Notes: generated by a model not told the origin, from the letters alone. DNA of 32,666 nt from an uncultured Candidatus Saccharibacteria bacterium (GCA_964621195.1 CAZULJ010000005.1:11168-43833), one strand, 5' to 3'. Shown: positions 4,063-32,612, counted from the stretch's first letter. Made by a program: numbers and translations.

Positions 4063-4066
4063 TATA

Positions 4067-4095: not shown

Positions 4096-4124
4096 TAATA
4101 TAGATTACTTTTTAATCAAAAAAG

Positions 4125-6309: not shown

Positions 6310-6329
6310 TTAATTGTTAATTTTTATAT

Positions 6330-7292: not shown

Positions 7293-7309
7293 ATTAACTA
7301 TTAGATTGT

Positions 7310-7696: not shown

Positions 7697-7727
7697 GGGA
7701 ATCTTATTTTTATAGCTGCCCTGGAAA

Positions 7728-8756
7728 GTGAAAATAGTTTTAAACAAAAGAAAATCTTTCTGGATTGTTTTTATGGTTTTATTCCTGTCTCTCCTAATAG
7801 GCTTAGTATATTTTTTCTATTCTAGCAACTTGTATAGGAATTATTTTTCTGGAAGATTTGATAGGTACGGAGAACTACTTTCTAAATGTGATGAAAAAAC
7901 AAATGATGGGAAGAGAATTTATAAATGTTCTGCACTTCTGAATTACGTTGATGTAAGTAAACAAGAGAAGGATTGTATTATCTTATCATATATTTCAGGT
8001 GATCCAAGTATTGAAAACAAAGAGATTTGTGAAGATTTTGAAATTATTGAATGGGATGAAGAAGTATTTAAAAAGGAAGAGAGATTTCCCGTATATCTAG
8101 AATTTATATATACTGGGAACTACATTCAGGGTTTTTCACTTGAGAAAATTCAAATTGAGTGGATGACAGATGATGAAACATCGATATTTACAAATTTACT
8201 TTCAGAGATTGGTGTCTCACTTACGAATTTAGCCACAAGGAGAGATTACAACATAGAACAGAGTGGATATTACTTCCAACCCCTTTCTGAAGAATTTTTT
8301 AATGGTAGTGTTGGAGTTGTTAATTTTGCACAAGCCAGAATTAAGGAATTTGCATTTGATGAAGGTATTGTAACTGTAAATTCTGAACTACTTATCAATG
8401 GGTTTTCAAGAGAATTAACATTAATAAGTAGGAAATTCCTCTATCAAAGAGATCCTATGGATGAGAATCTGCTAGAGGTTAAAAGAGAGAATTTATCTGA
8501 CTTAGATTTTAATAAAGAATATCAATTATCTGCTTTTTATCTTACTAAGTCAATTGATGAAGAGACATTTAAGAAAAAATGTTCAAACCCTGAAGAGATT
8601 GACATTTTTACACAAGCTTTTTGTTCTAGCTTTGAAACTTTGGAGATATCGGAGTATGTAATAGATATTGAGAAGTATTTAAATGAACAATTACTACTCG
8701 AGGGGGGCTTGCAACTGGATAAGGTAAAATTTTTTTATCTAGTTACATATGAGTAG
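7728..8756 (+). CDS. Hypothetical single-pass membrane protein, cassette 1 partner (paralog of 15174..16208)
   Basis: GTG start, N-terminal basic residues plus a TM helix, six Cys alignable with 15174..16208. Overlaps the next gene by 8 nt. Confidence 0.75.
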   Translation: MKIVLNKRKSFWIVFMVLFLSLLIGLVYFFYSSNLYRNYFSGRFDRYGELLSKCDEKTNDGKRIYKCSALLNYVDVSKQEKDCIILSYISGDPSIENKEICEDFEIIEWDEEVFKKEERFPVYLEFIYTGNYIQGFSLEKIQIEWMTDDETSIFTNLLSEIGVSLTNLATRRDYNIEQSGYYFQPLSEEFFNGSVGVVNFAQARIKEFAFDEGIVTVNSELLINGFSRELTLISRKFLYQRDPMDENLLEVKRENLSDLDFNKEYQLSAFYLTKSIDEETFKKKCSNPEEIDIFTQAFCSSFETLEISEYVIDIEKYLNEQLLLEGGLQLDKVKFFYLVTYE

Positions 8757-11139: not shown

Positions 11140-11219
11140 GAAAATATATAGAACTCTTTAAACTTTCATGTAATAATGGATTTGTAAAGAGGAAGGTGTA
11201 ATTTTTTACTAAAAATTAA

Positions 11220-15165: not shown

Positions 15166-15173
15166 AAACTTGA

Positions 15174-16208
15174 ATGAAAATACTTGTTAGTAAAAAAACA
15201 TCTGTAATATTTACAATGCTTGGTGTTATTCTTGTTCTTTCATCTGTTCTGGGAGGGTATTATCTCTATGAGAGAAATGTAATCATAAATGGTCAGTATG
15301 AATTAGATAAATACAGAGAGGAAACCGAGCTATGTACAAGAGAAGGTTTTTTTGGAAAGTTGAATTTTCGCTGTGAAGGATACATAGATATTTACCAAGA
15401 AAAGGATGGTAGAGATTGTTTCTCAATGGCTTTATTAAGTCCAGAAAAGGAGCTCTACTATAAGGAGATATGTGAACCAAAAGATTCCATAGAGTGGGAT
15501 AGAGGGACAATGATTTCTGAGAAAAAAGTCCCAGTATTTGTAGAGTTTTCATATTCAAGGCCAATGTTCGGTGGTTATGTCATAGATAGCATCAAATACA
15601 CCCTTATGTCCGATGAAGAGATTCAGAATTTTGCAGGCAAACTTGTGGAAGAAAGAATACCTGTACCTCATCTACGTACCCAACTAGAAGAGGATCTGGA
15701 ATATAAAGGTTACTATTTATCAAATGAACTTGAAGTTGCTGGGGGGGGAGGCCTAAGTTTTTTTGTACTCTTTAGTGCCAGTATAAAAGAAGTCGCGGTA
15801 TTGGGTGATAATTTAAGTATTACAGTACAGTTCTCAAACGAAGGTAAGGAATATGAATCAGTTTTTGTTGTAAAATCGGTTATGTTCCAAAAGGATATGT
15901 CTACAAATTACATCTCTTTAGATGTGAGTAACATTCAGGACTATGAATTCTCCGATTCTTCTCAAATCCTCTTGATGTATCTTGGAGAAGACACCAACCT
16001 TAGAAAGGAAGAGATTCTTTCCTACTGTTCTTCAGGTAATATATTGGCTGAATTCTTCTCCATTTGTTCAATAGTTGAAGATATTAATATAGATTCTTAC
16101 CGTATTGCAAATGCCGAAGAATACTTTAGATCTTCTTTAGAAAAGAATGCTGATGGCTTCGTTGATCTTGATAAGTTTCTGCTAAGTGGAATTCTTTTTA
16201 GATTGTAG
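15174..16208 (+). CDS. Hypothetical single-pass membrane protein, cassette 3 partner (paralog of 7728..8756)
   Basis: Shares DC..., KEICE...IEWD, PV(Y/F).EF.Y and M(T/S)D(D/E)E plus a C-terminal Cys pair with 7728..8756. Contains a G8 run at 15741-15748. Confidence 0.75.
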   Translation: MKILVSKKTSVIFTMLGVILVLSSVLGGYYLYERNVIINGQYELDKYREETELCTREGFFGKLNFRCEGYIDIYQEKDGRDCFSMALLSPEKELYYKEICEPKDSIEWDRGTMISEKKVPVFVEFSYSRPMFGGYVIDSIKYTLMSDEEIQNFAGKLVEERIPVPHLRTQLEEDLEYKGYYLSNELEVAGGGGLSFFVLFSASIKEVAVLGDNLSITVQFSNEGKEYESVFVVKSVMFQKDMSTNYISLDVSNIQDYEFSDSSQILLMYLGEDTNLRKEEILSYCSSGNILAEFFSICSIVEDINIDSYRIANAEEYFRSSLEKNADGFVDLDKFLLSGILFRL

Positions 16209-16210
16209 AA

Positions 16211-19200
16211 ATGAAAATTGGAAAATTAAAAACAATTATACTTTCAATATTTTTTCTGACAACATTGTTTGTTGTGTTAGAAATATCTAAAGGAGATGTT
16301 TCTGCAATGATCTGTGGAACTAACTACTATTGTACAACATCAAATCAATGGGTTAATTCTTATGTTCGTATCGGTGGTGGCTCATGCCATTACATTACTT
16401 ATTACTCGTGCAATGGAAATGATACAAACTGTCAGGAAGACTATGTTGATATATATTCTGATGCAGAATGTGCAGTAAAAACTCACGATGACTATGGTTG
16501 TTGTATATATGATTCACCTCCTGCTTGTAACAATTGTACACCATCGTCTCCACCTGCTTGTCCAGCGGGTACAACAGAGACAAATACGGGAGACTTCCAT
16601 TCCTCGACAACTTCAAGTTGTGATAGAGGCTCTGGTTGTGATCCAAGATATAATACTAGTACGAGAAACTGCTACTGTTCACTTTGTACGCCACCATCAT
16701 GTACCCCAACCTACTCTACAACCAATCTAGGTTTTGGTTCAATATCTCTTTCTTGTCAAAACTCTCCCACTGGAGACTCTCGTTGTGATTACAGATCAAA
16801 TACTTGCTACTGTTACCAATGTACTCCTGCAAACTGTCCTGCTGATTTGAGCAATACGGATCTCGGTGTTGGAGTTAGTACTCATACGGTATCTTGTACC
16901 AATGCATGTAGCTCAAGTAACAGTCGGGCCTGTTATTGTAGAGATTGTACATTACCAGTTCCTTCTGGAACAACATTAACAAATACTGGCCGACAATCTA
17001 CTGATCCTACCTATCAAAGCACAAGCTGTAGTAAGGGTACCGGATGTACTCCAAAAAGTGCACCATTGTACTGTACAAGATGTACTCCTACAGCATGTGG
17101 CCCCACCTACGCTACTTCAAACCAGGGATATGGCACCTTGAACTTTACTTGTAATAATACTTTGGCTTCCTGTGGTACTGAGACCAGAGCTTGTTACTGC
17201 TATAGCTGTACACCACCGGCCTGTGCACCAACCTACAGTACTACAAATTATGGATATGGCTCAGTTACATTAAGCTGTACGAATGCATGTAGTACAACTA
17301 GTAACAGAACCTGTTATATTGATAGATGTAGTAACTGTACACTACCAAACTGCCCATCTCCACTCACAAATACCCCTACCACAGCAGATCCAAATATGGA
17401 ACTTACAAACTTCAGATCATGTACACGTAGTGCACCTTGCGGTGGTCCAGCAAACTATGGAGCATGTTATGAGGTTGTAAGCCCACAACCAACAACAAGT
17501 TTACAAATATATCCTGATGCTGCAAATGTTTATAACTTCTCGAGTAGTACACATACGGGAACTAGAACACCGCTTTACAACCTTAATGACCCAATACCTA
17601 TGACTGCTACATATACAGATGTCAATGGAGCCACTGATATTGAGGCTGTATCTGTTTGGTTTAGAGATGAAAGTCTTTCTGGGGAGATAAATACTCCGTT
17701 AGTTTTTATGGAGACGGGTGGACCTTCGGTACCTGCACCACAAACGGAAACAAATAATAGCTGGGGCTTTATGATGAGATGGAATGGCTCGACATGGCTT
17801 CCATATGTACCTTCTTACCCTTCAGCGCCTAGTACTCCAGCTTGGGTCCCTGCCTTGTATGCTAGCAATTCTTTTGTAATTTCAGGTCCTAATGGACTAC
17901 AAATGGTGAGAGTTACAATAGGTCATTCTCTTCAGAGTAATATCACTAGGTCTGGAAATAACGTAGTATTACCATTCCAACTTAGTTTTAACTTCTCCTC
18001 AGGATATGATAGCGTAGCTCAGGTTGATTACCAGACTTACCTAATGGGTAACGATGTCTTCAGTTTTACACCAAGTGATAACTATGCCTTCTCGGTTGAG
18101 GGTTACTGGCAGGGTGGTCAATTACGATACCGAACGAGCCAATTACCTGCACAGCTTTATGCAAGGCAGTGGGCATTAACAGGGTATACATGGAGTGTAG
18201 ATAAGGATGTTCCAGAAGTAGAAGACCTTACTATGACAGTAATTGGTGATACAACTTTAAGATTAAGTTGGAATGTAACTGATTCTAGAGAAATATATGC
18301 TGTTGTGGGAAATATCTATGCATCAATTAGTATGCCTCCAAACCCTGATGATCTAGTAATTACTGGCACAGGTTTGGATGTGAACTCCCCTCATCAACTT
18401 ATTACAGATACTACAGATCTTGCAAAATTGAATACAGGTTATGCTTTCAGAGGTTTAAATATTGGCGGTACAACATATACAAACAATGTAACAATCGATA
18501 TCGGTTCAAATATTGAGGGAAGTCTTGTAGTATACCTCACGGCTTTTGATATGGCCGGTAATATGAGTACAAGAAGTTTAACCTACTCTCTTGGCGATTG
18601 GATAGCTACGTATGGTGGATTTGTATACTCTTCTGAGGGTAGAGACTATGAAATGAAGACAATAGAAAGTGATACCGCTTGGGATTCAGTACCTGTTCTA
18701 GCTGGGCTGGATCCAACCCTTGCGGATGTCTCTACAGAGCTTTTCGCAGATAATCAAAGTAGTGGTACATTGCCATCAGCTCTTGATAGAAGTACCGAGT
18801 TACGTTCTTACCACATGAGACCATTTAGTGTGAATGTAGAAATGGATAGTCTGTATCAGGAATTAAAACAGGCTTACAATGATAGGGAAATTGAAGGAAA
18901 GGTGGATCTAACCTTGGACTTACCTATGATTACAAGTCTAAATGGTAATCTAAGTGATATTGGGAGCTGTACTGACTCTTCAAGGGTATGTATTTTAAAA
19001 AGACAAGGAGATTTGGATGTCGGGAATGTATCAACGTTTAATTGTGATCAATGGGGAGTATTCTTTGTAGAAGGAAATCTAACTATTTCAAGAAACATTG
19101 TTAATGCAAATCCTTCCTATGACGCATGTATCTTTGTAGTTGGAGGTGAAGTTTTAATTGAAGATGGACAGGCACATTCTAACGCTTTACTGATAGGGTA

Positions 19201-19471
19201 TGATCAGATCAATGCATATATAATGGCGGATGGAGCAGTAAATATCCAAGCTGAGCTTGGTGCAGCTGCAAAGTATGATGGTGTATTTGTAGGCGGTGGT
19301 TTACATAGTTTAACAGGCATTAATATGGATAGAAGTCTTAAGTTGGCAGACAGAAATATATACCCTGCTCTACTTGTTAAATATCATCCTAAATACTCGG
19401 TATTGAGTAATCTTGTATTTGGTAGTCAGATTGATATACTAAAAACAGAATTAGGTTTTAAACCATACTAG
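16211..19471 (+). CDS. Large secreted Cys-rich repeat protein, putative adhesin (cassette 3, 1086 aa)
   Basis: Signal ..GDVSA|M, tip alignable to that of cassette 1, seven Cys repeats, diverged core (TYTDVNGATDIEAVSVWF vs TYTDADGGTDIEAIYVWF). Ends IDILKTELGFKPY. Confidence 0.75.
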   Translation: MKIGKLKTIILSIFFLTTLFVVLEISKGDVSAMICGTNYYCTTSNQWVNSYVRIGGGSCHYITYYSCNGNDTNCQEDYVDIYSDAECAVKTHDDYGCCIYDSPPACNNCTPSSPPACPAGTTETNTGDFHSSTTSSCDRGSGCDPRYNTSTRNCYCSLCTPPSCTPTYSTTNLGFGSISLSCQNSPTGDSRCDYRSNTCYCYQCTPANCPADLSNTDLGVGVSTHTVSCTNACSSSNSRACYCRDCTLPVPSGTTLTNTGRQSTDPTYQSTSCSKGTGCTPKSAPLYCTRCTPTACGPTYATSNQGYGTLNFTCNNTLASCGTETRACYCYSCTPPACAPTYSTTNYGYGSVTLSCTNACSTTSNRTCYIDRCSNCTLPNCPSPLTNTPTTADPNMELTNFRSCTRSAPCGGPANYGACYEVVSPQPTTSLQIYPDAANVYNFSSSTHTGTRTPLYNLNDPIPMTATYTDVNGATDIEAVSVWFRDESLSGEINTPLVFMETGGPSVPAPQTETNNSWGFMMRWNGSTWLPYVPSYPSAPSTPAWVPALYASNSFVISGPNGLQMVRVTIGHSLQSNITRSGNNVVLPFQLSFNFSSGYDSVAQVDYQTYLMGNDVFSFTPSDNYAFSVEGYWQGGQLRYRTSQLPAQLYARQWALTGYTWSVDKDVPEVEDLTMTVIGDTTLRLSWNVTDSREIYAVVGNIYASISMPPNPDDLVITGTGLDVNSPHQLITDTTDLAKLNTGYAFRGLNIGGTTYTNNVTIDIGSNIEGSLVVYLTAFDMAGNMSTRSLTYSLGDWIATYGGFVYSSEGRDYEMKTIESDTAWDSVPVLAGLDPTLADVSTELFADNQSSGTLPSALDRSTELRSYHMRPFSVNVEMDSLYQELKQAYNDREIEGKVDLTLDLPMITSLNGNLSDIGSCTDSSRVCILKRQGDLDVGNVSTFNCDQWGVFFVEGNLTISRNIVNANPSYDACIFVVGGEVLIEDGQAHSNALLIGYDQINAYIMADGAVNIQAELGAAAKYDGVFVGGGLHSLTGINMDRSLKLADRNIYPALLVKYHPKYSVLSNLVFGSQIDILKTELGFKPY
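16526..17473 (+). repeat. Seven degenerate ~40-51-aa Cys/Thr-rich protein repeats (C-T-P/L-x2-C-P...TN.G...C...C...CY-C/E)
   Basis: Units end in RNCYC, NTCYC, RACYC, PLYC, RACYC, RTCYI and GACYE. Diverged at DNA level. Confidence 0.85.
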
Positions 19472-19518
19472 TTTTCTGATATTATTAATGTAGTCATAAT
19501 TTAACTGTCCAAAATAAT

Positions 19519-20547
19519 ATGGCTAAACTGCCTGACCATGTAGGAATAGACTTTGGAACACACTCCGTAAAGGCTGTTGAGCTTAAAAACTCTGGAACCT
19601 CTCCTGAGTTGATTAATCTTGGTAGTCAGATAACTCCAAAGGGAGTTATAAATAGTGAAGACAAACAAGATCAAAAGAAGTTAGCAGATGTTCTTAAGAA
19701 GCTTTACGATGATTCGAAGATAAAGAACACAAATGTTGTAATGGCATTGCCAGAGTTTTCTGTTTTTACAAGATTCTTAGAATTTCCTGGTGTTAAGAAA
19801 GAAGAGCTAAGAGATGCGGTTTTCTTTGAAGCAAAGCAGTATATCCCTATGTCTATAAACGATGTACATATGAGTTTTGTAACCATTGGTTTCAATGAAG
19901 AAAAAAATGCTCCAAGAGTTCTTTTGGTTGCAGCACCTAAAAAGGTTGTAAATATATACATGGATATTGCTAAAATGGCTGACTTAGATCTTGTAGCTAT
20001 AGAAACAGAATCTGTTGCTATGGGTAGAGCAATGTACAAGTCTACTAATATAAAAAATCTTGTAATGTTAGATTTTGGAGCAAATAGCACAGACATGAGC
20101 ATTATGAGTGACGGATACCTTGTATTTTCTCAAAGTATCGCTATTGGGTCAGACTCTTTAACACAGGCTATTGTTAATAAATTCAACTTTGAATACAGTA
20201 GAGCTGAAGAATTTAAGAGAAACTATGGATTAGTACCTACAGTATTGGAAGGTAAAATCTATGGAGCACTTTCTCCAATTGTTGAATCTATACTCCTAGA
20301 GGTACAAAGAGGTGTTGAATTCTATAAAAACAAAACCTCAAGCTCCTCTCCAAGCGATTATCAATTGAATGGTGATGGTGCCCTACTCCCTGGTTTGTCT
20401 GAATTTGTTTCAAAATCTTTGGGTGTTAATGCAAAGGTTTCAAATCCATGGAATGGTATTAATGTTGATAGTAAATTTAAAGATATTGTTGCAAAGGGTG
20501 GACCATCATACTCTGTTGCAATAGGTTTAGCATTAAAAGATGAATAA
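19519..20547 (+). CDS. pilM: Type IV pilus assembly protein PilM
   Basis: Actin-like motifs VGIDFGTHSVKAVEL and LDFGANSTDMSI, EAKQYIP, VLLVAAP, ending SVAIGLALK. Confidence 0.92.
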   Translation: MAKLPDHVGIDFGTHSVKAVELKNSGTSPELINLGSQITPKGVINSEDKQDQKKLADVLKKLYDDSKIKNTNVVMALPEFSVFTRFLEFPGVKKEELRDAVFFEAKQYIPMSINDVHMSFVTIGFNEEKNAPRVLLVAAPKKVVNIYMDIAKMADLDLVAIETESVAMGRAMYKSTNIKNLVMLDFGANSTDMSIMSDGYLVFSQSIAIGSDSLTQAIVNKFNFEYSRAEEFKRNYGLVPTVLEGKIYGALSPIVESILLEVQRGVEFYKNKTSSSSPSDYQLNGDGALLPGLSEFVSKSLGVNAKVSNPWNGINVDSKFKDIVAKGGPSYSVAIGLALKDE

Positions 20548-21211
20548 GGAGCCGAATCAGACACAAACCGTGCAGAGTCCTAAAGTAGCACCTGTTACTA
20601 CTCCGGTTAGTGCACCTAAAACAATGGTTGAACAACTTTCTAGCGAATCACAAGGCCTCACAGAGGGCTTTAACTTAATGCCTTCTATGACAAAGGAAGA
20701 GATAGTTGTAGAGAAAACAAAAACCACTGTAAATTTGGGATCTGTTGTAAGTCTAATTGTTCTTGTTTTGATAATTCTTGGTGTAGTTGGTTTTAATATT
20801 GTTTCAAAGCAGATGCTCAATAGTAAGAAAGAGGAGCTTTTTGCTTTAGAAAATATTGTAAATCAACAATCAGATAAAATTATTGCAAATGATGAAATTG
20901 TTGATAGAGCAATTCTTTACAATACTGTTAAAACTGGAGCATTCTCTCATAAGGCAATCATAGAATTTATATCAGCAATAAGCCAAAAGGTTGGAAATAT
21001 TGAAATCAGGAGCGTAATGATATCTGAGAACCTTGAATTCACATATGTTGGATATACGGCCAGTTTAGAGAATGTATCTAAACTCTGGTATATGTTGGGT
21101 ATTGATGAAAATATTGAAAATATTAATCTAAAGTCAGTTGGGAAATCTAATGGATCTGTATCTTTTACTTTTGAGGGTCTTTTAAATATTAAAAATTTTT
21201 CAAATAAATAG
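20540..21211 (+). CDS. pilN: PilN-like alignment-complex protein
   Basis: FNLMP (INLLP-like PilM-binding motif) before a single TM, then a coiled coil and a small beta/alpha domain. Overlaps pilM. Carries a Q/P/T-rich N-terminal extension. Confidence 0.7.
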   Translation: MNKEPNQTQTVQSPKVAPVTTPVSAPKTMVEQLSSESQGLTEGFNLMPSMTKEEIVVEKTKTTVNLGSVVSLIVLVLIILGVVGFNIVSKQMLNSKKEELFALENIVNQQSDKIIANDEIVDRAILYNTVKTGAFSHKAIIEFISAISQKVGNIEIRSVMISENLEFTYVGYTASLENVSKLWYMLGIDENIENINLKSVGKSNGSVSFTFEGLLNIKNFSNK

Positions 21212-21213
21212 AC

Positions 21214-21912
21214 ATGGGATTAGCTAAGGGATCTAATACAAAAACAAGTAAAGAAATTGCAGTAATTAGCGAGAAGATAAGGCAGTCGAGATTAAGCTTT
21301 TCTGATCTGGTTGTTCCAATAATAGTTTTGATTGTATTACTTCTTCTTTCTGTATTTGTTTTTGTACCAATGATCAATGCTGCATTAGAGTATCGGGCAG
21401 AGTTAAAAGATACAGAGCAAAAGATTGAAACTTTGGAAGAGCTTTCTAAGAAGTTGGATAATATAGATGAGAATCAATTAAGCGATGATATTATCCTTGC
21501 AAAAAGTGTAATACCAAAAGTATTAAAAGTCTCAGATTTTATATATTATGTAGATAATCTTGCAAAGGAGAAAGGTCTTTTGATTAGAGAGCTTTCCGCA
21601 GGCGATATGGGTGGTGCAGTTTCTCAGGCAGAAAGCGGAGCTGGGGTATCTGGGCCAGTATCATATGTTGGTGATTACCAAAGTGTTGTAGGATTCCTTG
21701 AACAGGTACAAGTTGTATCTCCATATATAATACGTTTACAAAATGTAGAGGTAGCAGCTCTAACCACGGGTCAATGGAGTATCTCTCTTAATTTGAGTGG
21801 ATATTATATGGCAGATCGAAATGCTGTCGTAGACTTATACAAGCCATTTAGGCCATACACCGATTACCAAGATACAATTGATATCTTTAAAGCAAAAGCA
21901 GAAAGCCTTTAA
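21214..21912 (+). CDS. pilO: PilO-like alignment-complex protein
   Basis: Single TM, coiled coil, G.YQSVVGFLEQV..VSPYIIRL.NVEV ferredoxin-like pattern. Follows pilM-pilN. Confidence 0.7.
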   Translation: MGLAKGSNTKTSKEIAVISEKIRQSRLSFSDLVVPIIVLIVLLLLSVFVFVPMINAALEYRAELKDTEQKIETLEELSKKLDNIDENQLSDDIILAKSVIPKVLKVSDFIYYVDNLAKEKGLLIRELSAGDMGGAVSQAESGAGVSGPVSYVGDYQSVVGFLEQVQVVSPYIIRLQNVEVAALTTGQWSISLNLSGYYMADRNAVVDLYKPFRPYTDYQDTIDIFKAKAESL

Positions 21913-24064: not shown

Positions 24065-26782
24065 CTATATTATCCAACTCTCTTTAATTTCTATCTCTTC
24101 CCCTGGTTGTATTTGTCCCTCGATCATCTCTTTTGCGATATTTCCTTCTATATTATCCTGTATATATCTCTTTATTGGCCTTGCACCTAATCCTGGTTGA
24201 TTAGCTTTGTTTGCAATTAATTGGGGTACTAGATGATTCCATGTTAAGACTATACTCTTTTCAGAAAGTCTCTTTGAAAGCTCTCTGAGTAATATCTCTG
24301 ATATATCTGCAAGACTTTCCATATCGTGTGGGTGGAATACAACGACCCTATCAAACCTATTTAGTAGTTCTGGCCTTATCGATTGTCGTAGCTCAATTAG
24401 TGCACGATCTTTTGCTTCCTCCCAAGTAGTTCTTCCTTCACTTAAGGAGTTAAGAAGCATTAGACTACCAATATTGCTTGTACATACTATTATGCAGTTT
24501 GTAAAATCTACTACCTCACCTAAGTTACTTGTTAATCTACCCTCATCAAACATTTGTAAGAAAAGGTCGAGAATTTGGGGATGTGCTTTCTCTATCTCAT
24601 CAAAGAGAACTACTGTATATGGATTAAGCTTCACTTTATCGATTAGTGATACTGCGCTTTGCCCCGTGATATTGGTCTGACCACTCTCTCCTAGGAACTT
24701 CTCTATACTTGCAATATCTTGATATTCAGACATATCTACCCTAATCATATCGCTTGCTTCTCCGAAATATTCTTCGGCAACAATTTTTGCCAAATATGTC
24801 TTTCCGACACCCGTTGGTCCCATGAAAAGGAATGTACCAATTGGCTTGTTAGGGTTTCGGATATCAGTATGTGCTCTTCTAAGAGACTCTACAATTGCTT
24901 TTATAGCTTCATCTTGCCCAATTACCCTACCCTTTATCTTCTCCTCAAGTTGCATTAACTTTGTGCTCTCTTGTGCATTTACACCTGCAATTGAAATACC
25001 CTTCTGATTAGAGAGTACCTTTGCAATATGCTCCCCTGTAAGAACATTAACACCATTACTTTGAGCCCATGCACATGATGCTTCAAGTAGTTGTACTGCA
25101 CTACTTGGTAATTTACGTTCCTTAGAGTATCTTTGTGCTAACTCAACTGTGCTAATTAACGCGGGTAGAGTTATATATATCCCGAAGTTTTTTTCTAATT
25201 GCAAAATCTTTGTTTCAAGTATTACTAGAGCATCATCTGCCGATATTTCGGCAACTTCAATATTTGTGAATGTCTGTCTAAGAGATTCTGAACTGTAGAA
25301 ATATTTTTTGTAATCAGAATGATTAACAGTACCAATGATTGGGAACTTACTGTTGAGTATGTAAGGTAGAAGTATTCCAGCAAGTGAGTGTCCAGAATCT
25401 TGTGCCTTTGCAGGTATTAATTCTTGCATCTCATCTATGTACAAGATAGTATCGCCTGCATTTTCTAACTCTTCGATAGCTTTGCCAATTAGCTGCTCGA
25501 CACTTTTCTCTTTTGATGCGAATGCGATCAATCCATTAATATCGAACTGTAGTATCCTTTTATCTTTCAATTGTAATGGTACATCTCCCCTATTTATCCT
25601 CTGTGCAATGCCAAGTATGAGGCTAGATTTTCCAACACCGGGTTCTCCTACTAAGAGGGCATTTTTGTTTGAGACCTTACCCAATACCGATACCAGATTG
25701 TCTATTTCTTTTTCATGCCCGATACCAAAGATATCATCATATCTTGCAACATATTCGTTAATATTTTTGCTGAATTTGTTTAATATGAATGTATATCCGT
25801 ATATCCATGATTCTGCTATCCCACCCTTCTTGTAGTATGTTACGTTAGGATTGAGATAGTTTGTACTTCTTCTTTTTTCTCTTTCATATGATTGATATCT
25901 TACGACCTCTCGTAGTATATCGATAGAGGAGTTTTGAGTAAGAAGGTATTTCTTGAGTACGGGGAAAACATTAAACAGTGCTAACATAATATGCTCCGGC
26001 CTTATTTCTCTTGATGATGTTAAAAGGGCTTCGTTTAGCGAATATATCAGTATACTTCTGATTGCAGTTGCTGGATACTTTGGTATTGTGTTACTGTTAA
26101 CATCCTCTTTTGAAAGAGATTCAAAATCTAGTTTTAGGTCTGCTCTTTTAAAAATATCTTGAGATTGAGGATAGATGATTAGCTCTGCTAGTAGAGAGAG
26201 TGTATCTAGTTGGTCTTTCGAGGTATTTGCGCAGATAATGTCTAATGAAACATCATTTATGTAATTTATTGCCTCTAAATGGGCATATCTTCCGAATTTA
26301 AATCCTGTTGCCTTTATTTCTTCTAAATCATTTAGTGGTATCTTTTCAGCATTTGGTAGTTTTACTGGGTGACTTTTGTCTTTGTAATAGTCGTGCCATA
26401 GGATAAAGACACTGAAGATTGATAGGCCAAAAAGAGCATCAGATATTCCACTAGCAAGAAACTCCTTAACTATTGAAATATTCTCGAGAATTCCAAACTG
26501 TCTTAACATATATCCTACTGCTATGACTAACCCAGGAACCAGTAATACATTAGCTACTAGCCTTATATTCTCATAGTATCTTTCATATCTAAGGTAATTT
26601 GTTAATACGTTGCTAACTTGTGGGGTTGAGATTGTGAAGAACTGGTCTCTTGTTAAAAGGAAAAGGGCTTCAGATTCTTTAGTGAGAATAGGAAATTCCT
26701 TACTTACAACACCAAAAGTGTTACTATCCTTAGAATGAAAGCCTATTAATGTTCTGTTTTGCCATCCGTAATCTATCGCCAT
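24065..26782 (-). CDS. Atypical class I Clp/Hsp100 AAA+ ATPase with an N-terminal membrane anchor
   Basis: Two NBDs: GEPGVGKS / ILYIDE and GPTGVGKT / VVLFDEIEKAH, RPELLNR, GARPIKR. Two hydrophobic segments near the N-terminus. No M-domain, no IGF/L loop, and both Tyr pore loops are not recognisable. Confidence 0.85.
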   Translation of the reverse strand: MAIDYGWQNRTLIGFHSKDSNTFGVVSKEFPILTKESEALFLLTRDQFFTISTPQVSNVLTNYLRYERYYENIRLVANVLLVPGLVIAVGYMLRQFGILENISIVKEFLASGISDALFGLSIFSVFILWHDYYKDKSHPVKLPNAEKIPLNDLEEIKATGFKFGRYAHLEAINYINDVSLDIICANTSKDQLDTLSLLAELIIYPQSQDIFKRADLKLDFESLSKEDVNSNTIPKYPATAIRSILIYSLNEALLTSSREIRPEHIMLALFNVFPVLKKYLLTQNSSIDILREVVRYQSYEREKRRSTNYLNPNVTYYKKGGIAESWIYGYTFILNKFSKNINEYVARYDDIFGIGHEKEIDNLVSVLGKVSNKNALLVGEPGVGKSSLILGIAQRINRGDVPLQLKDKRILQFDINGLIAFASKEKSVEQLIGKAIEELENAGDTILYIDEMQELIPAKAQDSGHSLAGILLPYILNSKFPIIGTVNHSDYKKYFYSSESLRQTFTNIEVAEISADDALVILETKILQLEKNFGIYITLPALISTVELAQRYSKERKLPSSAVQLLEASCAWAQSNGVNVLTGEHIAKVLSNQKGISIAGVNAQESTKLMQLEEKIKGRVIGQDEAIKAIVESLRRAHTDIRNPNKPIGTFLFMGPTGVGKTYLAKIVAEEYFGEASDMIRVDMSEYQDIASIEKFLGESGQTNITGQSAVSLIDKVKLNPYTVVLFDEIEKAHPQILDLFLQMFDEGRLTSNLGEVVDFTNCIIVCTSNIGSLMLLNSLSEGRTTWEEAKDRALIELRQSIRPELLNRFDRVVVFHPHDMESLADISEILLRELSKRLSEKSIVLTWNHLVPQLIANKANQPGLGARPIKRYIQDNIEGNIAKEMIEGQIQPGEEIEIKESWII

Positions 26783-27186
26783 TATATGCTAAACAATGAT
26801 TTAAGAATGAAGAATACTGTTGCTGGAGGTAGAAGTAGCCACACTACTATAACTAGAAGGTAAGCAATCATTACAAGTATATATGTGATACCTGCAATTG
26901 GTAAATACAATATCTTTATTAAAAATCCAAATGTATACCCAATTAGTGAAAAATCTCTATGCCAAGGTAGTAGGAAGTTCTTAAACAGTAGGCTAATAGA
27001 GAGGTTGTCATCTACAAACTCAGAAAGTCTAACTAACATTCTTAGATGCCATAGGGGCATCCTTGCGTACCACCAATATAAGAATTCCTTAGAGGTATAT
27101 GTGATAATAACAAGGAGGTTATCGACCTGTGACTCATTTAGGATTTTTTGTCCACTATTGCTTGTTAATATATTCTTTTGTTCCAT
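26782..27186 (-). CDS. Small membrane protein translationally coupled to the Clp-like ATPase
   Basis: Hydrophobic and Trp-rich (FLYWWY, LSISLLFKNFLLPWHRD). Its TAA overlaps the ATPase ATG (TAATG at 26784-26780). Confidence 0.78.
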   Translation of the reverse strand: MEQKNILTSNSGQKILNESQVDNLLVIITYTSKEFLYWWYARMPLWHLRMLVRLSEFVDDNLSISLLFKNFLLPWHRDFSLIGYTFGFLIKILYLPIAGITYILVMIAYLLVIVVWLLLPPATVFFILKSLFSI

Positions 27187-27308
27187 ACCTTAGGCAGTAA
27201 TACATTGTAAGTTTATTGTAAATTCAATATTAATTCAAGTAAAAACACTTTCCCCAGTTTATGGTTTGGGCCTTGGAACAAGGAAAAGACAGAAATTGGG
27301 TTGTAATA

Positions 27309-27317
27309 TGTTAGAAT
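27309..27317 (+). promoter_or_regulatory. Extended -10 promoter, predicted leaderless dus transcript
   Basis: TG-T-TAGAAT (27309-27317). Exactly 6 nt separate the hexamer from ATG 27324. Confidence 0.6.
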
Positions 27318-27323
27318 TACGGA

Positions 27324-28265
27324 ATGAATATATATACAGAAATTAAAAAACCGATATTAGCACTTGCCCCAATGGAGGATGTTACTGATACGGTATTTAG
27401 ACAGATTGTATTATCTCTCGGTAGACCCTCTCTCTTCTATACAGAGTTTGTTAATGTAGAAGGCTTAAATAGCCGTGGTAGAGATCGTGTAATACATCGA
27501 TTAAGCTATGTTAAAGAGGAGAAGCCAATCATTGCCCAGCTATGGGGTGTTAAACCTGAGAATTTTCTCTACGGTGCAAAGTTAGTTAAAGATATGGGAT
27601 TTGATGGTGTAGATATTAATATGGGGTGTTCAGTAAAGAATGTTGTGAAAAACAATGCTGGCAGTGGATTGATTAATGAGGATAGAGGGAGGGTAAAAGA
27701 GATAATAGAGGCTGTGATGGAAGGTTCGGATGGTTTGCCGGTATCTGTTAAAACAAGATTGGGTTTTGACTCGATAGATATTGATGGATGGATTGCATTC
27801 TTACTTTCACAAAACCTGGAGGCCCTAACTGTTCATATGAGAACGGCAAGGGGTGAGAATTCCATTAATGCAGATTGGGAGCATATGGGCAGTATAGTGG
27901 CCTTGAGGGATACAATCTCACCCTCTACTCTACTTTTGGGTAATGGTGATATTAAATCTATAAAAGAGGGTTTAGAGAAAATTAAACAATACAATATTGA
28001 GGGAGTGATGATTGGTAGAGAGGCAATATCTAATCCTTGGGTGTTTTCTGGGAGAACAGATATAAGTATTGAAGAGAAGTTGGAAACACTCAAGAAACAC
28101 TTAATTCTTTGGAGAGAGGGTTGGGAAGGTGAAAAAGATTATCACTCACTAAAAAAGTTCTTTCATGGGTATATCCGAGAATATACTAATGCTAAAACAC
28201 TTAGGGATTCTCTTATGAAAACAGAAAATGTTTCTCAAGCGCTTGAAATATTAGAGGAAATTTAA
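27324..28265 (+). CDS. dusB: tRNA-dihydrouridine synthase (Dus family, DusB-like)
   Basis: LAPMEDVTD, YTEFV, IIAQLWG, DINMGC (catalytic Cys), SVKTRLG, VH.RT, GNGDI, GVMIGR. Subfamily assignment is less certain than the family. Confidence 0.88.
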   Translation: MNIYTEIKKPILALAPMEDVTDTVFRQIVLSLGRPSLFYTEFVNVEGLNSRGRDRVIHRLSYVKEEKPIIAQLWGVKPENFLYGAKLVKDMGFDGVDINMGCSVKNVVKNNAGSGLINEDRGRVKEIIEAVMEGSDGLPVSVKTRLGFDSIDIDGWIAFLLSQNLEALTVHMRTARGENSINADWEHMGSIVALRDTISPSTLLLGNGDIKSIKEGLEKIKQYNIEGVMIGREAISNPWVFSGRTDISIEEKLETLKKHLILWREGWEGEKDYHSLKKFFHGYIREYTNAKTLRDSLMKTENVSQALEILEEI

Positions 28266-30487
28266 GAGTCTCTTTTTAATCCCATCTTTGCAAACATATC
28301 GGTAGTATCTTTTTGCATCTTGTGTTCCTCTTGGTTGGTATATTTTTCTAAGCTTACGGTAAATGTACTCCCCTTACCTAGCTCACTTTGTATATCAATT
28401 TTTCCACCCATTTTTTGTACTAACCCAAATGTTACATACAGTCCTAGTCCGGTTCCTCCTGGTCTAACAATATCAAAATCGTCTTTTTCCTCTGACTGTA
28501 TGTATGTTTTTGTTCTAAAGAACTTTGTACCTAATCTCTTTAAATCTTCGGGGGCAATACCTCTACCAGTGTCCTGTATTGAAATATGGAGATACTTTTC
28601 ATCTTCTTTGGCATAGACGTTGATACACCCTTCGTCTGTGTATTTTACTGCATTACTTATGAGGTTATTAAATATCTCTACTGTTCTCGCGTGGTCTGCA
28701 TATATTGCAGGGGTATCTTGTGGGACCTCATTTATTATCTTTATACCTTTCTGTGTAGCGTGCTCTTCTTCTCCGTGTATTGCCATCTCTATTTCTTTTG
28801 AGATATCAATTTTCTCTTTATTTATTTCAACCTTATCTCCCTCTAGCTTTGCACTACTTAGGAGTGTATTGATCAATTTTATCTCTGTTTCTACCGCATC
28901 CTTAATCCTACCTACATATTTATCAAACGATTGCTTATCTTGGGTAACCTTATCTGAAAATTGCCTTAAAAGGTCTGCGTTAAGCTTTACTACTGTAGCG
29001 GGAGTTCTTAACTCATGTCCCATTATATCTATCATATCGGCTTCTTTCTTCCTTGCCTCTTCGAGTAGTCTGACTTTTTCCTGTAATTCTGTAGTCTGTT
29101 CATCTACTCGAGTTTTTAGTGATTTATTTATCTCTTGAAGTTCTTCATAAAGGATTGTTCTATTCAAGGAAACGGACATACTGTTAGACATAAGGGAGAG
29201 ACTGTTATACTGTGCTTCCCCTAGTACATCGTCTGTGTTGTAAATATTAATCAATGCCTGTAAAGAGTTTTTGCTTGCAAGTGGGATGATTATACTAATT
29301 TTGTTTTTCTGCATATGGTTATAGATCTCCTTTGTAATCTCTTTATTATTCTCCCTATCGAAGTACGACTCTATTAGCACCTCCTTGTTTATTACTGGAA
29401 TTCTTGATCTTAATTTCCACCAGTGAGTAATCTTTTCTTGAATATCAGTAATATGTTCTTGTCTGATTAATTCTAAGACTATACTCTCCGGTTTTAACAT
29501 CTTTTCTAAGGTGCTGTAAGCAACCTGTGTTAACTCTTCCGTTGAAGTAATACTTGTTGTTTTATCAATAAAAGAACCAACTTCCTCTTGTGATTGTACC
29601 TGTCTTTTTTCGTATATTCTGTTGAAGTATCCATAAAATCCGTTGATTACAATAACTATTGAAAGAGAGGTTAAAAATCTACCGACAATGTTCATCTCAA
29701 TATCAACGACTCCTGCAAATGACCATATCGCTAGTATTACAAGAGCAGATAGTAATACTCCGAAGAGTCTCGTAAGTTCCTCTCTAATATCTACTACTGC
29801 AACCTTTATCCATAGACTCTTATTTATTACGAATGCTAGTAATGAGAGAGAGAGAAACATAAAGGGGCTATACATAGAGAGCCCTAGCATAGGTAGCACA
29901 ATTAGACCAAGACTCATTGAGACGTAAACGAATGCAAGAGTTAGAGATATTGTTGATATCTGCCTTTTCTGTGTAGGAGTGTATAGAGGTAGTCTTGATT
30001 TCCAATGTAGTAGGATTGCTACAAAGAATACCACTGCTAATGCTATTAATGCATAATACAAAGGTCCTGGTGAGAAATCTGCTGGAGAGTTTTGAACAAC
30101 GGAGAAGTTTGTTATGTTGTATTGAGATCTGAAGAGAAACGCAGATGCAATTGTGTATAGTCCAGTAATAACGGCACATATTTTGAATATACGATTCTCT
30201 TTATTTATTGTAATTATTCTAGGGAACTGATCGACAATCCCCATTAAAGCGTTAATAATATTGAGTGGGAAAAAGATTGAAATCTGTGCAAATAGAAGAG
30301 CTGTTTCTTGCTCTCTGAGAATATCTGCAAGAGCATTAGTTACTGCCCATCCAGTTATCGAAATTAATAGGTATAGATACTGAAAGGTTTCTTTTTTGGT
30401 TAATTTTTTTCTTAACCTAAAAAACACCCATATGTTAGAAAAGAGTGTAAGAAGAATAAAAAGATATATAATGTATAGATTCAGCAT
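28262..30487 (-). CDS. Sensor histidine kinase with an N-terminal multi-TM (7TM-like) input, a GAF-like region, HisKA and HATPase domains
   Basis: H-box MGHELRTP, N-box NNLISNAVKYT, G1 DTGRGI, G2 GGTGLGL. About 290 N-terminal residues are mostly hydrophobic helices. Confidence 0.92.
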   Translation of the reverse strand: MLNLYIIYLFILLTLFSNIWVFFRLRKKLTKKETFQYLYLLISITGWAVTNALADILREQETALLFAQISIFFPLNIINALMGIVDQFPRIITINKENRIFKICAVITGLYTIASAFLFRSQYNITNFSVVQNSPADFSPGPLYYALIALAVVFFVAILLHWKSRLPLYTPTQKRQISTISLTLAFVYVSMSLGLIVLPMLGLSMYSPFMFLSLSLLAFVINKSLWIKVAVVDIREELTRLFGVLLSALVILAIWSFAGVVDIEMNIVGRFLTSLSIVIVINGFYGYFNRIYEKRQVQSQEEVGSFIDKTTSITSTEELTQVAYSTLEKMLKPESIVLELIRQEHITDIQEKITHWWKLRSRIPVINKEVLIESYFDRENNKEITKEIYNHMQKNKISIIIPLASKNSLQALINIYNTDDVLGEAQYNSLSLMSNSMSVSLNRTILYEELQEINKSLKTRVDEQTTELQEKVRLLEEARKKEADMIDIMGHELRTPATVVKLNADLLRQFSDKVTQDKQSFDKYVGRIKDAVETEIKLINTLLSSAKLEGDKVEINKEKIDISKEIEMAIHGEEEHATQKGIKIINEVPQDTPAIYADHARTVEIFNNLISNAVKYTDEGCINVYAKEDEKYLHISIQDTGRGIAPEDLKRLGTKFFRTKTYIQSEEKDDFDIVRPGGTGLGLYVTFGLVQKMGGKIDIQSELGKGSTFTVSLEKYTNQEEHKMQKDTTDMFAKMGLKRDS

Positions 30488-30490
30488 GTT

Positions 30491-31606
30491 TTAGAGTTCT
30501 ATAATCTTGGGGAATTTCCTCATATGGAAATTCTCATACACAAAACTATATGCTCCTGCATTGGGTATTATAAGATAGTCACCCTCTTTTAGATTAATAG
30601 GCAGTAAGCATTTCTTATTTATAATATCATAGCCGTCGCAAGAAATTCCAACGATCTTATAATATTTCTTTGGACTATTCTCACATTCTTTTGTTGTACA
30701 GTACTTATAAACAGGGTATTCAAAATGTTCTAGAGGTTCTATTAATCCATTAAATACACTTAAATCTGTTACAACAATTTGTGGACTCTTGTAACTCTTA
30801 ATATTTACAACCTTGGCAGCAAGCACCATCGTGTTTGCAGATAATGCCCTGCCAGGCTCAATAATAAATTCACTTACTCCTGTTCTTGATTTTACGTAGT
30901 GAGTAAACTTGATTATCTTGTCTATGTAATACTCCACGGACTTTACTCCATTTTCATACCTTACTGGGATTCCACCCCCCATGTTTATACATTTTAGATT
31001 TATTCCGTATTCTTTTGAGGTCACGACAAGACGTTCAATATCGTAAAGCGCGTTCCTCCAAGAAAGTACTGACTTATTTTGAGATCCGACATGAAAGGTC
31101 AATCCATATATTGGCCACTTATTCTTTTTAGCCTTTTTAAGTATATCTGTGTAGTATGATTCCGACATTCCAAACTTATCAGAAAGATTGAATGTAGCAT
31201 CCTTATTTTTTGCGGTCATTCGTCCTATTAATTTTGGATTCCTTGTATTCCTTAGGATCTTTTTTAATTCGATTTCTGTATCAAATGCGTAGTATTCGAC
31301 ACCAACGCTAGATGCATACTGTACGTCTTTTTCTAATTTGGTTGGAGCTGAAAAGGAAATCTTTTTTGGATCTGCACCAAGACTTAATGCGTATTCTAAT
31401 TCTTCTTTTGAGGCAACATCGAAACCGTATCCTGCTTCTATGTAAGCTTGGATCATGGGTTTATAGTTATTTGCTTTGATTGCGTAGAATATTTGTATGG
31501 AATTATCGAGGAGGGGTTGGAAGGTCTTGATATTTTGAGCGGTATTTTGTGCTTGGTATAGGTATGCTGGAGTTTCTAGTTTATTGGTTATTTTCAGGTC
31601 TTTCAT
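30491..31606 (-). CDS. Fold-type III PLP-dependent decarboxylase, ornithine/lysine decarboxylase-like
   Basis: FYAIKAN (PLP Lys), FDVAS..E, HVGSQ, NMGGG, EPGR, GISCDGYD and GAY. The CD motif is ODC-type, whereas LysA has CE. Confidence 0.85.
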   Translation of the reverse strand: MKDLKITNKLETPAYLYQAQNTAQNIKTFQPLLDNSIQIFYAIKANNYKPMIQAYIEAGYGFDVASKEELEYALSLGADPKKISFSAPTKLEKDVQYASSVGVEYYAFDTEIELKKILRNTRNPKLIGRMTAKNKDATFNLSDKFGMSESYYTDILKKAKKNKWPIYGLTFHVGSQNKSVLSWRNALYDIERLVVTSKEYGINLKCINMGGGIPVRYENGVKSVEYYIDKIIKFTHYVKSRTGVSEFIIEPGRALSANTMVLAAKVVNIKSYKSPQIVVTDLSVFNGLIEPLEHFEYPVYKYCTTKECENSPKKYYKIVGISCDGYDIINKKCLLPINLKEGDYLIIPNAGAYSFVYENFHMRKFPKIIEL

Positions 31607-32498
31607 CTTTTACCTTGTATATATTAACAAAAACATTCTGTCCTTCTTCATTTCTGTATCCCTTTCTTGTAAGGGTTAGTTTTTTGTTTTGGTAAAGGAC
31701 CTTTGAGAAGAGAGAGAGAAGCCTATCCTCCTCTTCTGCAGTTCTAATTGTGGCGGAGCCTTCCTTTGTGAACATTATGAACTGATCGGGAAGTGGGCTA
31801 AACTTCTTTGCTGCGCGGATTATTGACTCCATCATAAAGCGGCTCTCCTTTGTTACTGCAATTTCTCCTAAGTATGTTGTAGGTACTTCATCTATTAAAG
31901 CTCTTAATTCCTCTTGCATCTCTTCGGGTATATAGTAGCCAATTTCGTCAAAAATCTGATCTCCAATATTTGAACCCATGTATCTAACTCTTGTAACTCC
32001 CCTTGGGCTTACAATTTCCCCTGGTGATTCCTCTGTTAAATCTATTGTTTGTTGTTTGTCATTAGCATCGTGATATGAGACCAAGACCATGGACTTAGGA
32101 TCTTTAGAGTCTCTAGCATATGCCTTTAATATACTTGAGAATGGATATATCATCCTTATCCTTGCGAGTGTTTCCTCATCTGAGATAATTTCAAGAATCT
32201 CTTCTTCTCCCTCAGTAGTTAGAAATACTGACTCTGGGTTTACAAGTAATGCATCTATTAATCTAAAAAGATGAGTTGCATTATGTGGATCAAAGTCGTC
32301 CTCTGAGTCTGAAAATTGTTGTAAATAGTCATCCCCCTCTTCTACTGTCCATTCTTCTGCAAATGGTGGTCTAGAAAATACCGAGACATATACGGAAATT
32401 GCGCATGCTAGTCCCTCTATTTGTTTATCAGAAAAACTATCTTTATCAAATTTCTCTCCAAGGCTAGTTCTTGTTATTACTGGATCTTTTGGGTCCAT
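31581..32498 (-). CDS. Hypothetical acidic protein with GNAT-like features
   Basis: N-terminal VYVSVFSRPPFAEEW and YLGEIAVTKESR resemble GNAT helix-1 and beta4/motif A. The (R/Q)xxGxG loop is absent. Overlaps the decarboxylase start by 26 nt. Confidence 0.45.
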   Translation of the reverse strand: MDPKDPVITRTSLGEKFDKDSFSDKQIEGLACAISVYVSVFSRPPFAEEWTVEEGDDYLQQFSDSEDDFDPHNATHLFRLIDALLVNPESVFLTTEGEEEILEIISDEETLARIRMIYPFSSILKAYARDSKDPKSMVLVSYHDANDKQQTIDLTEESPGEIVSPRGVTRVRYMGSNIGDQIFDEIGYYIPEEMQEELRALIDEVPTTYLGEIAVTKESRFMMESIIRAAKKFSPLPDQFIMFTKEGSATIRTAEEEDRLLSLFSKVLYQNKKLTLTRKGYRNEEGQNVFVNIYKVKDERPENNQ

Positions 32499-32527: not shown

Positions 32528-32556
32528 ATTATAGTAAATTATTCTATTTTTGACCA
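32528..32556 (-). promoter_or_regulatory. Candidate promoter for the GNAT-like/decarboxylase/kinase operon
   Basis: Minus strand TGGTCA, 17 nt, TATAAT (32533-32528), 29 nt upstream of ATG 32498. Confidence 0.55.
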
Positions 32557-32583: not shown

Positions 32584-32612
32584 TTGACACTGCCTAGTGG
32601 TACTAGTATATT
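32584..32612 (+). promoter_or_regulatory. Divergent sigma70 promoter for a gene beyond the window's right edge
   Basis: TTGACA (32584-32589), 17 nt, TATATT (32607-32612). Confidence 0.65.

Follow-up and report, generated by a model that had tools for sequence, protein, structure and literature searches.

In the CqsA-CqsS (Vibrio CAI-1), LuxM-LuxN and LqsA-LqsS systems, a biosynthetic gene lies beside the gene for a histidine kinase that has multiple transmembrane (TM) helices and no large periplasmic domain, and the response regulator is encoded elsewhere. A comparable arrangement was analyzed here in a 32,666-nucleotide stretch of DNA (the window) from an uncultured Candidatus Saccharibacteria bacterium (GCA_964621195.1, CAZULJ010000005.1:11168-43833), in which three consecutive open reading frames (ORFs) on the minus strand, located at positions 28262..32498, encode a protein lacking annotation (ORF1), a decarboxylase and a sensor histidine kinase. 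The nearest relatives of all three proteins are found in metagenome-assembled genomes of Candidatus Dojkabacteria (candidate division WS6), which belong to the candidate phyla radiation (CPR/Patescibacteria). The source organism is accordingly placed in Dojkabacteria/WS6, as a bacterium of anaerobic digesters. Dojkabacteria are ultra-small, probably host-dependent CPR bacteria. As CPR/Patescibacteria possess very few biosynthetic and regulatory genes, those that are retained and held together are informative on their life with hosts and neighbors. An original prediction, made from the window alone, had described the three genes as a candidate module for the synthesis and sensing of an amine-based signal, and in the literature no description of such a module of decarboxylase, unannotated family and kinase was found. 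The cassette is real and non-random and the functional linkage of its genes is well supported, whereas the mechanism is one that we infer; as an amine-based signalling system it is a good candidate and not a proven one.

Conservation of the three-gene cassette

Synteny of the triple across genomes, which the original prediction had left to be checked, is clearly present. An ORF1-family gene, followed by a decarboxylase gene of one distinct clade and then by the gene for a multi-TM kinase of about 700-750 aa, was found at 11 of 11 distinct placed loci (the window, L001, L004, L007, L008, L013, L015, L016, L019, L095 and L096), and as the same triple recurs in 10 loci besides the window, the three-gene arrangement is not due to chance. 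The junctions between the genes range from -68 to +10 nt in all cases but one, which has an 88-nt gap. Identity to the window proteins across the loci is 24-68 %, with minima of 24 % (ORF1), 43 % (decarboxylase) and 26 % (kinase), and the gene order is retained even where ORF1 identity has fallen to 24-36 %. At least four differing flank contexts surround the triple: a pilus operon or UDG/NUDIX/HD genes lie upstream of some copies, a ribosomal-protein operon and a formyltransferase gene flank the copy in L008, and a tRNA gene is located upstream in L013. As for the location of individual copies, in the most divergent lineages, L096 and L095, the cassette lies in the region of the replication origin, with rpmH-rnpA-yidC on one side and dnaA-dnaN on the other, and in L001 a pilus operon is located directly and divergently upstream of it.

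The clade to which these decarboxylases belong is well delimited, since a clade-specific hidden Markov model (HMM) gave 383-578 bits for its members and at most 296 bits for 75 other fold-III decarboxylase loci. A kinase gene neighbors the decarboxylase gene in 16 of the 16 distinct loci of the clade and in one of the 75 outgroup loci, so that the adjacency of biosynthetic gene and sensor kinase across genomes by which synthase-receptor systems are judged was found at every clade locus. From these observations, functional linkage of the genes is strongly supported.

Clade loci outside the 11 triples carry other genes in the first position. In two lineages, the upstream gene encodes an N-methyltransferase of the NNMT/PNMT type (PF01234), and in another a canonical GNAT (PF00583) and a small EamA-like membrane protein take this place; in one further lineage (L020, 3..3335), S-adenosylmethionine decarboxylase (AdoMetDC; PF02675, 1.3e-26) is encoded ahead of the clade decarboxylase. 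The presence of amine and polyamine enzymes at this position fits an amine-modifying role for ORF1. The methyltransferase (two) and GNAT lineages have kinases of 469-476 aa with two TM helices and a periplasmic loop of about 180 aa directly ahead of the HisKA domain, suggesting that sensing is extracellular in these relatives. The kinase gene stays adjacent both in L009, where its orientation is convergent, and in L011, where it is co-directional, indicating that proximity itself was kept through rearrangement. Since the partner enzyme is swapped while the sensor stays, the invariant core of the locus is decarboxylase plus kinase, joined by a variable third partner that is mostly an amine-modifying enzyme. 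Regarding details of the variants, the 118-aa four-TM protein of the GNAT lineage (L017, 1550..1906), which lies between the GNAT and the decarboxylase and shows weak similarity to EamA/SMR proteins (E 0.012), is a possible small exporter of that variant's product, and in L020 a 272-aa multi-TM ORF lies downstream of the decarboxylase gene, with a PAS plus HisKA fragment behind it, the kinase there being perhaps differently built or frameshifted.

Within the window, an ORF listing reproduced exactly the limits first given for the three same-strand genes (Table 1). The ORF1 and decarboxylase genes overlap by 26 nt (31581-31606, sequence ATGAAAGACCTGAAAATAACCAATAA), and 3 nt (30488-30490) separate the decarboxylase stop codon from the ATG of the kinase gene. 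On the minus strand no convincing terminator was seen between the three genes, and because the downstream Dus gene is convergent with the kinase gene, the unit ends with the latter. The single promoter proposed for the operon is matched by a sigma-70-like site upstream of ORF1; as such sites are not more frequent in the region than expected from shuffled sequence (18 versus 21.5), it is retained as a candidate only. Its -10 region, together with the subsequent AATGAT(A/T)ATTATTTGTT, recurs upstream of the ORF1 orthologue in L001, but across the 11 loci no common operator was detected upstream of ORF1, only AT-rich -10-like words being in common. A second promoter-like block, on the opposite strand near the end of the window, is also conserved in L001; there it lies upstream of the orthologous cassette and is directed at a pilin gene. 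Judged by gene arrangement and distribution, the cassette is a three-gene unit restricted to the Dojkabacteria/WS6 lineage and predicted to be translationally coupled.

Table 1. Features of the cassette and of its surroundings (positions within the window)
Feature	Position	Strand	Remarks
ORF1	31581..32498	-	305 aa; protein family without prior description; acidic, soluble, alpha/beta, fold weakly GNAT-like
Decarboxylase	30491..31606	-	371 aa; fold-III (alanine-racemase-fold), pyridoxal 5'-phosphate (PLP)-dependent, of the type of ornithine decarboxylase (ODC) or lysine/ornithine decarboxylase (L-ODC)
Sensor histidine kinase	28262..30487	-	741 aa; without adjacent response regulator
Kinase input domain, residues about 1-285	29633..30487	-	8-9 predicted TM helices, no large extracytoplasmic loop (hydropathy scan)
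GAF-like cytoplasmic region of kinase, residues about 300-470	29078..29590	-	predicted, between TM domain and HisKA
Kinase catalytic core, HisKA residues 484-549 and HATPase_c residues 598-715	28343..29038	-	Pfam
Kinase C-terminal tail motif DMFxRLGLKK (window DMFAKMGLKR)	28271..28300	-	after ATPase domain
Candidate sigma-70-type promoter TGGTCA-17-TATAAT	32528..32556	-	10/12 match; about 30 nt upstream of ORF1 ATG
Near-consensus promoter TTGACA-17-TATATT	32584..32612	+	11/12 match; directed away from ORF1 to window end
Dus gene	27324..28265		downstream of kinase gene
134-aa membrane protein gene	26782..27186	-	no family match
ClpB gene	24065..26782	-	
Type IV pilus/type II secretion system (T2SS)-like cluster	63..21912	+	large
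Stand-alone CheY-like receiver gene	7310..7696	+	PF00072, 1.7e-20; inside pilus cluster
Six consecutive ORFs in pilus cluster	7728..19471		342, 796, 555, 761, 344 and 1086 aa; no Pfam match

The decarboxylase, the kinase and the ORF1 family

The assignment of the second gene to an ornithine/lysine-type decarboxylase held up, as both Pfam domains are present, PF02784 (Orn_Arg_deC_N) with 2.7e-48 and 164.9 bits (cut-off 23.4) and PF00278 (Orn_DAP_Arg_deC beta-domain) with 1.8e-13 and 51 bits (cut-off 23), together with the catalytic residues. In an alignment of 48 clade members, K44 (the PLP lysine), H172-x-G-S-Q, G210-G-G, E250-P-G-R253, C323 and G351-A-Y353 are invariant or nearly invariant, and these key residues align with K69, H197, GGG, E274/R277, C360 and Y389 of human ODC. 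Because of this conservation, the decarboxylase, which appears intact with its catalytic residues in place, should be active. The closest solved structures are human/mouse ODC (6e-35) and the L-ODC of Selenomonas ruminantium (5gjm, 1.5e-31), with diaminopimelate (DAP) decarboxylases, chlorovirus arginine decarboxylase (ADC) and BtrK ranking lower; the best NCBIfam match is TIGR01048 (lysA), whose 179 bits fall below the cut-off of 297.9 bits. By these similarities the enzyme is a member of the ODC/L-ODC group of fold-III decarboxylases. Clade members have 356-407 aa, fewer than eukaryotic ODCs, and their loop with the catalytic cysteine (C-loop) reads SC(D/A/E)G(Y)D (SCDGYD with C323-D324 in the window) compared to TCDSxD in the nearest outgroup. 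Which substrate a fold-III decarboxylase prefers is adjusted by its specificity helix and its Cys loop, and some of these enzymes act on pre-acylated amino acids (PMC7857480). A glutamate, E290, stands at or beside the position of ODC D332, next to an alignment gap, and is common to the outgroup too. Arginine specificity, considered by analogy to Glu296 of the PBCV-1 ADC, was dropped, as this glutamate is found outgroup-wide and lies one residue off D332 and is therefore not diagnostic; the literature consulted does not contain the claim about the viral residue.

The HisKA (9.7e-8) and HATPase_c (4.7e-24) domains of the third gene product, together with its predicted TM helices, agree with its initial description as a multi-TM sensor kinase. 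Among 16 homologues, H491 (in HELRTP), N612 and the DxGxG motif at 639-643 are invariant and GGTGLG (G678-G682) is nearly so. The kinase protein has no receiver (Response_reg) domain, and a phmmer scan with CheY and PhoB over the clade loci other than L095 and L096 revealed no response regulator in the fetched flanks (6-10 kb on each side) of any of them; in L096 an OmpR-type regulator is encoded about 3.5 kb downstream of the cassette, past dnaA and dnaN. The only receiver within the window is the stand-alone CheY-like protein, encoded 21 kb from the kinase gene. Sequence comparison thus shows an intact class-I (HisKA) histidine kinase that has no response regulator gene nearby.

In the membrane region of the kinase, D55, N76, N124, Q173 and Q176 are invariant in the alignment, N51 is nearly invariant, and the nearly invariant D233 follows directly after the sixth predicted helix. 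A comparison with HisKA_7TM (PF16927), suggested along with the original prediction, gave collinear similarity over model positions 4-214 of 224, although for the window N-terminus the score remained below the threshold (12.1 bits, E 0.17, gathering score 28.6). As the model matches five of 16 kinase relatives, with a best E of 2.1e-5 and with 18 bits for L096, the input domain is probably a distant relative of HisKA_7TM. When the sensor half was searched against 5.8 billion proteins, only 13 proteins were retrieved, all of them kinases of about 725-751 aa, three of which are shorter fragments; most of these 13 homologues are apparently encoded on contigs with a clade decarboxylase, pointing to a sensor domain that is restricted to this module. 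The predicted cytoplasmic region between the TM domain and HisKA carries the conserved pattern WWxLRSxTPIIN...IIP...LIGLI...LNESDY...SVSISRALxYxE and is termed GAF-like on account of weak matches to PF13185 (GAF_2) in three of 16 family members (best E 0.045), the window fragment itself giving no match. Of the 15 homologues extending to the C-terminus, 14 carry the DMFxRLGLKK tail, the exception being L019; the tail is possibly a docking motif.

For ORF1, no Pfam or NCBIfam match was obtained. None of 25 aligned family members matched a GNAT profile at E <= 1, or any Pfam family whatever, and comparison of the ORF1 profile with PDB sequences gave no match at E <= 10. A word-indexed search of 5.8 billion proteins returned a single relative, and 25 matches were obtained when 1.84 billion representatives were scanned exhaustively with HMMER; as one of these is spurious, the family has about 24 representatives in this set. 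The spurious match, P0129 (2693 aa), is a VWA-repeat protein whose score is the sum of weak repeats. ORF1 represents a new, fast-evolving family which occurs only ahead of the clade decarboxylase. P45, W50, Y127, R170, E185, E212 and P237 are invariant in this family and the motifs FSxPPFxExW, YLGEIA and LPxQ are conserved, and the invariant residues suggest an active site.

The reading of ORF1 as GNAT-like, made originally from the window, found weak support. An AlphaFold (AF2) model based on the alignment of 25 sequences is a single globular alpha/beta structure with pLDDT 91 and pTM 0.89; it replaced a model based on two sequences (pLDDT 68), with which Foldseek matches were meaningless. 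In Foldseek searches against the PDB, GNATs rank at the top, with weak E values of 1.8e-3 to 2e-2, none reaching 1e-3, and TM-scores of 0.22-0.35. These neighbors include the acetyltransferase domain of NAT10, insect arylalkylamine/spermine N-acetyltransferase, agmatine N-acetyltransferase, SbzI and a chlorovirus polyamine acetyltransferase, and the top match in BFVD is likewise a GNAT (E 1.6e-2). The order of secondary-structure elements in the model is compatible with a GNAT core (beta1-alpha1-alpha2-beta2-4-alpha3-beta5-alpha4-beta6) carrying insertions. On the other side, hhalign of ORF1 with a canonical GNAT gave a null result (probability 0.1), and in the 25-sequence alignment no conserved Q/R-x-x-G-x-G/A motif, the acyl-CoA pyrophosphate-binding loop, follows YLGEIA. 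The term GNAT-like is therefore used as a plausible lead from the structural model and not as a classification. A diverged PNMT-like methyltransferase, as found in the sister loci, was also considered for ORF1 and was rejected because hhalign showed no relation and motif I for S-adenosylmethionine binding is absent.

Proposed coupling of amine production to sensing and its alternatives

With an invariant decarboxylase and kinase and a third partner that mostly modifies amines, the cassette can be read as amine production coupled to a sensor, in which the synthesis of a small amine would be linked to a dedicated membrane sensor kinase in synthase-receptor style; we give this reading a probability of roughly 45 %. 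Starting from a basic amino acid (ornithine, lysine or arginine type), the decarboxylase would yield an amine or diamine. ORF1 would be an enzyme modifying this amine, N-acylation by a divergent scaffold of GNAT-like fold being the most likely reaction, and might act either after decarboxylation or beforehand on the amino acid; the presence of amine, polyamine and agmatine N-acetyltransferases among its top Foldseek matches is counted in favor of amine modification. The kinase, which would be made from the same transcript, would sense either this amine or a derivative of it, in or at the membrane, and would relay the signal to an unlinked response regulator. Direct detection of the amine by the kinase, as a synthase-receptor loop, would be the simplest mechanism.

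Several observations weigh against this reading. The assignment of ORF1 to the GNATs consists of non-significant structural matches, fails every sequence test and lacks the CoA-binding motif, and the usual acyl donors are perhaps lacking in CPR bacteria. The equivalent of ODC D361 in the decarboxylase, D324, is an aspartate in the window, an alanine in L007 and L016 and a glutamate in methyltransferase-type loci; as it is not strictly kept, the predicted substrate can be stated no more narrowly than as a basic amino acid similar to Orn, Lys or Arg. The periplasmic sensors of methyltransferase-type and GNAT-type loci are 62-70 % identical despite the swap of the partner enzyme, suggesting that the kinase is probably blind to the modification and may respond to the unmodified amine or to something unrelated. 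Moreover, the operon in the window encodes no exporter, and whereas CqsS and LuxN are hybrid kinases, its kinase is not.

A more elaborate version would see here an autoinducer-type system of a new chemical class in Dojkabacteria, in which the ODC-like decarboxylase and the GNAT-like family make an N-acyl- or aminoacyl-diamine that is sensed in the membrane by the HisKA_7TM/GAF kinase and relayed to a regulator encoded elsewhere, for which the receiver of the pilus cluster is a possibility, so as to control attachment or population behavior. In this complete form the proposal is unlikely, and the pairing of the CheY-like receiver with a kinase that lacks a response regulator of its own is speculative.

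The main rival is a polyamine homeostasis operon, in which putrescine or cadaverine is made for the cell's own use, ORF1 buffers or inactivates any excess, by acylation or otherwise, in the manner of SpeG, and the kinase only regulates supply, so that no signal passes between cells; its cue would be external, host-derived or from the envelope, or else the intracellular polyamine level perceived via the GAF-like region. We regard this as possible although somewhat doubtful. The resemblance of the decarboxylase to housekeeping ODC and L-ODC enzymes, the constancy of the kinase sensor when the partner enzyme is swapped and the missing exporter are all as expected from homeostasis, and in L020 the clade decarboxylase adjoins AdoMetDC, an enzyme of the spermidine pathway. 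However, housekeeping L-ODC genes of the outgroup are almost never located beside kinase genes, the translational coupling of a kinase without response regulator to enzymes would be unusual for plain metabolic control, and the kinases of the sister type sense outside the cell.

Two further explanations are less likely. In Selenomonas and Veillonella, cadaverine or putrescine is covalently linked to the envelope, and GNAT-like folds include the Fem-type peptidoglycan transferases. The cassette might correspondingly serve envelope modification, with ORF1 as the transferase that links the diamine covalently to peptidoglycan or to a constituent of the membrane while the kinase monitors the envelope; the S. 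ruminantium enzyme is among the closest solved relatives of the decarboxylase and a multi-TM kinase without extracytoplasmic loop would suit an intramembrane or envelope sensor. We consider this improbable, since amide formation with a diamine needs activation of a carboxylate and neither an ATP-binding motif nor similarity to ligases was found in ORF1, and since the methyltransferases that replace it in sister loci are unsuited to such a transfer. About equally improbable is a non-enzymatic ORF1, serving the decarboxylase as a regulatory or adaptor subunit (like antizyme, antizyme inhibitor or prozyme) or as a linker between decarboxylase and kinase. ORF1 diverges much more quickly than its partner (24-59 % compared to 43-68 % identity), co-occurs strictly with the decarboxylase to which its translation seems coupled and has no recognizable cofactor motif, all of which would suit such a role, but its seven invariant residues include charged and aromatic ones (R170, E185, E212, Y127, W50) on a confidently predicted globular fold, and bona fide enzymes stand in its place in sister loci. 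That the genes have no functional link, the decarboxylase being LysA (diaminopimelate decarboxylase) or a housekeeping enzyme encoded beside a kinase by coincidence, would be in line with its top NCBIfam match, lysA, even though this stays well under the cut-off, but is very improbable, because its C-loop is CDGxD as in ODCs and not CESGD as in DAP decarboxylases, its best solved relatives are ODCs, and kinase adjacency persists in all clade loci with changing flanks, in contrast to the outgroup.

Whichever way the cassette works, it has been kept across deep divergence within Dojkabacteria and contains a family without annotation and a sensor domain found nowhere else. Should the kinase indeed detect the amine that its operon partners produce, the cassette would represent the earliest proposal of a dedicated small-molecule signalling system in this lineage, with signal chemistry that is new. 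If it is a homeostatic circuit instead, the orphan family would still gain a testable role and a kinase-linked ODC-like subfamily would be defined. As all three proteins are small and either soluble or amenable to reconstitution, the question is approachable without cultivating the organism.

Genome surroundings and relation to described systems

A large part of the window is occupied by the type IV pilus/T2SS-like cluster, which encodes T2SSE, T2SSF, three N_methyl pilins, a prepilin peptidase and PilM and which includes six consecutive ORFs without family assignment. RNase III, NusB, ClpB and Dus are encoded elsewhere in the window, and no tRNA gene or Rfam element was detected in it. The gene for a 134-aa membrane protein precedes that of ClpB with a stop/start overlap of 1 nt; this pair is kept in L001, and an ORF of 134-136 aa occupies the same position in L004 and L007, ClpB being shown for L007 only. 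Near-identical DNA is present in anaerobic-digester and activated-sludge metagenomes, and one run of unclear type (X15) yielded only short contigs of a 90-95 % relative. In several digester metagenomes the assembly graphs branch at 32614-32616, where depth rises from 35x to 138-200x (run X1) or from 5x to 2200x (run X5), and the sequence beyond 32614 (to 32666) is common to more abundant genomes or is a repeat. In run X5, the region of the 134-aa ORF and Dus (27000..28100) is covered about 1000x by contigs with scattered differences, compared to about 14x for the cassette; this contrast indicates a far more abundant relative that has the segment and apparently does not have the cassette, or not closely.

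Concerning the individual enzymes, the cassette decarboxylase has the two-domain fold-III architecture of human ODC (1d7k/7s3f) and of the L-ODCs from S. ruminantium (5gjm) and Vibrio vulnificus (2plj) and conserves their PLP lysine, HxGSQ, GGG, EPGR, catalytic Cys loop CDGxD and GAY, but it differs from them in belonging to a separate clade with its own C-loop and in being always kinase-linked. The top structural neighbors of the ORF1 model, GNATs that acetylate amines (AANATL/spermine N-acetyltransferase 4fd4/5yag, the agmatine enzyme 7ciw/7civ, PBCV-1 3qb8 and SpeG), act on the kind of product that a basic-amino-acid decarboxylase makes. ORF1 has no sequence or profile similarity to them, is about 100 residues longer and lacks their acyl-CoA pyrophosphate loop.

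The fold-III decarboxylases FigC/FslC and SbnH, acting on N-citryl-ornithine and N-citryl-diaminopropionate (N-citryl-Dap), respectively, as well as BtrK, use as substrate an amino acid already acylated by the product of a neighboring gene (PMC7857480). They provide a precedent for an order in which ORF1 would act first and the decarboxylase second. These enzymes belong to siderophore or antibiotic clusters and cooperate there with NIS (NRPS-independent siderophore) synthetases or carrier proteins, whereas no such genes are located at the cassette, and their similarity to the window decarboxylase is weak (FslC 7e-15, BtrK 7e-23).

As a whole, the cassette would be functionally closest to cqsA-cqsS or luxM-luxN, by analogy and without being a member of those families, since its parts and its kinase architecture are non-homologous to theirs. 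CqsA is, like the cassette decarboxylase, a PLP-dependent synthase; it belongs, however, to the acyl-CoA transferases of fold I, and LuxM is an unrelated enzyme; the cassette, by contrast, combines a fold-III decarboxylase with a new family. As hybrid kinases, CqsS and LuxN include a receiver domain, which the cassette kinase does not have, and its HisKA_7TM-like and GAF-like input is unlike the CqsS/LuxN type. Biosynthesis-coupled two-component sensing is a known principle, and the cassette places a genuinely new protein family within it.

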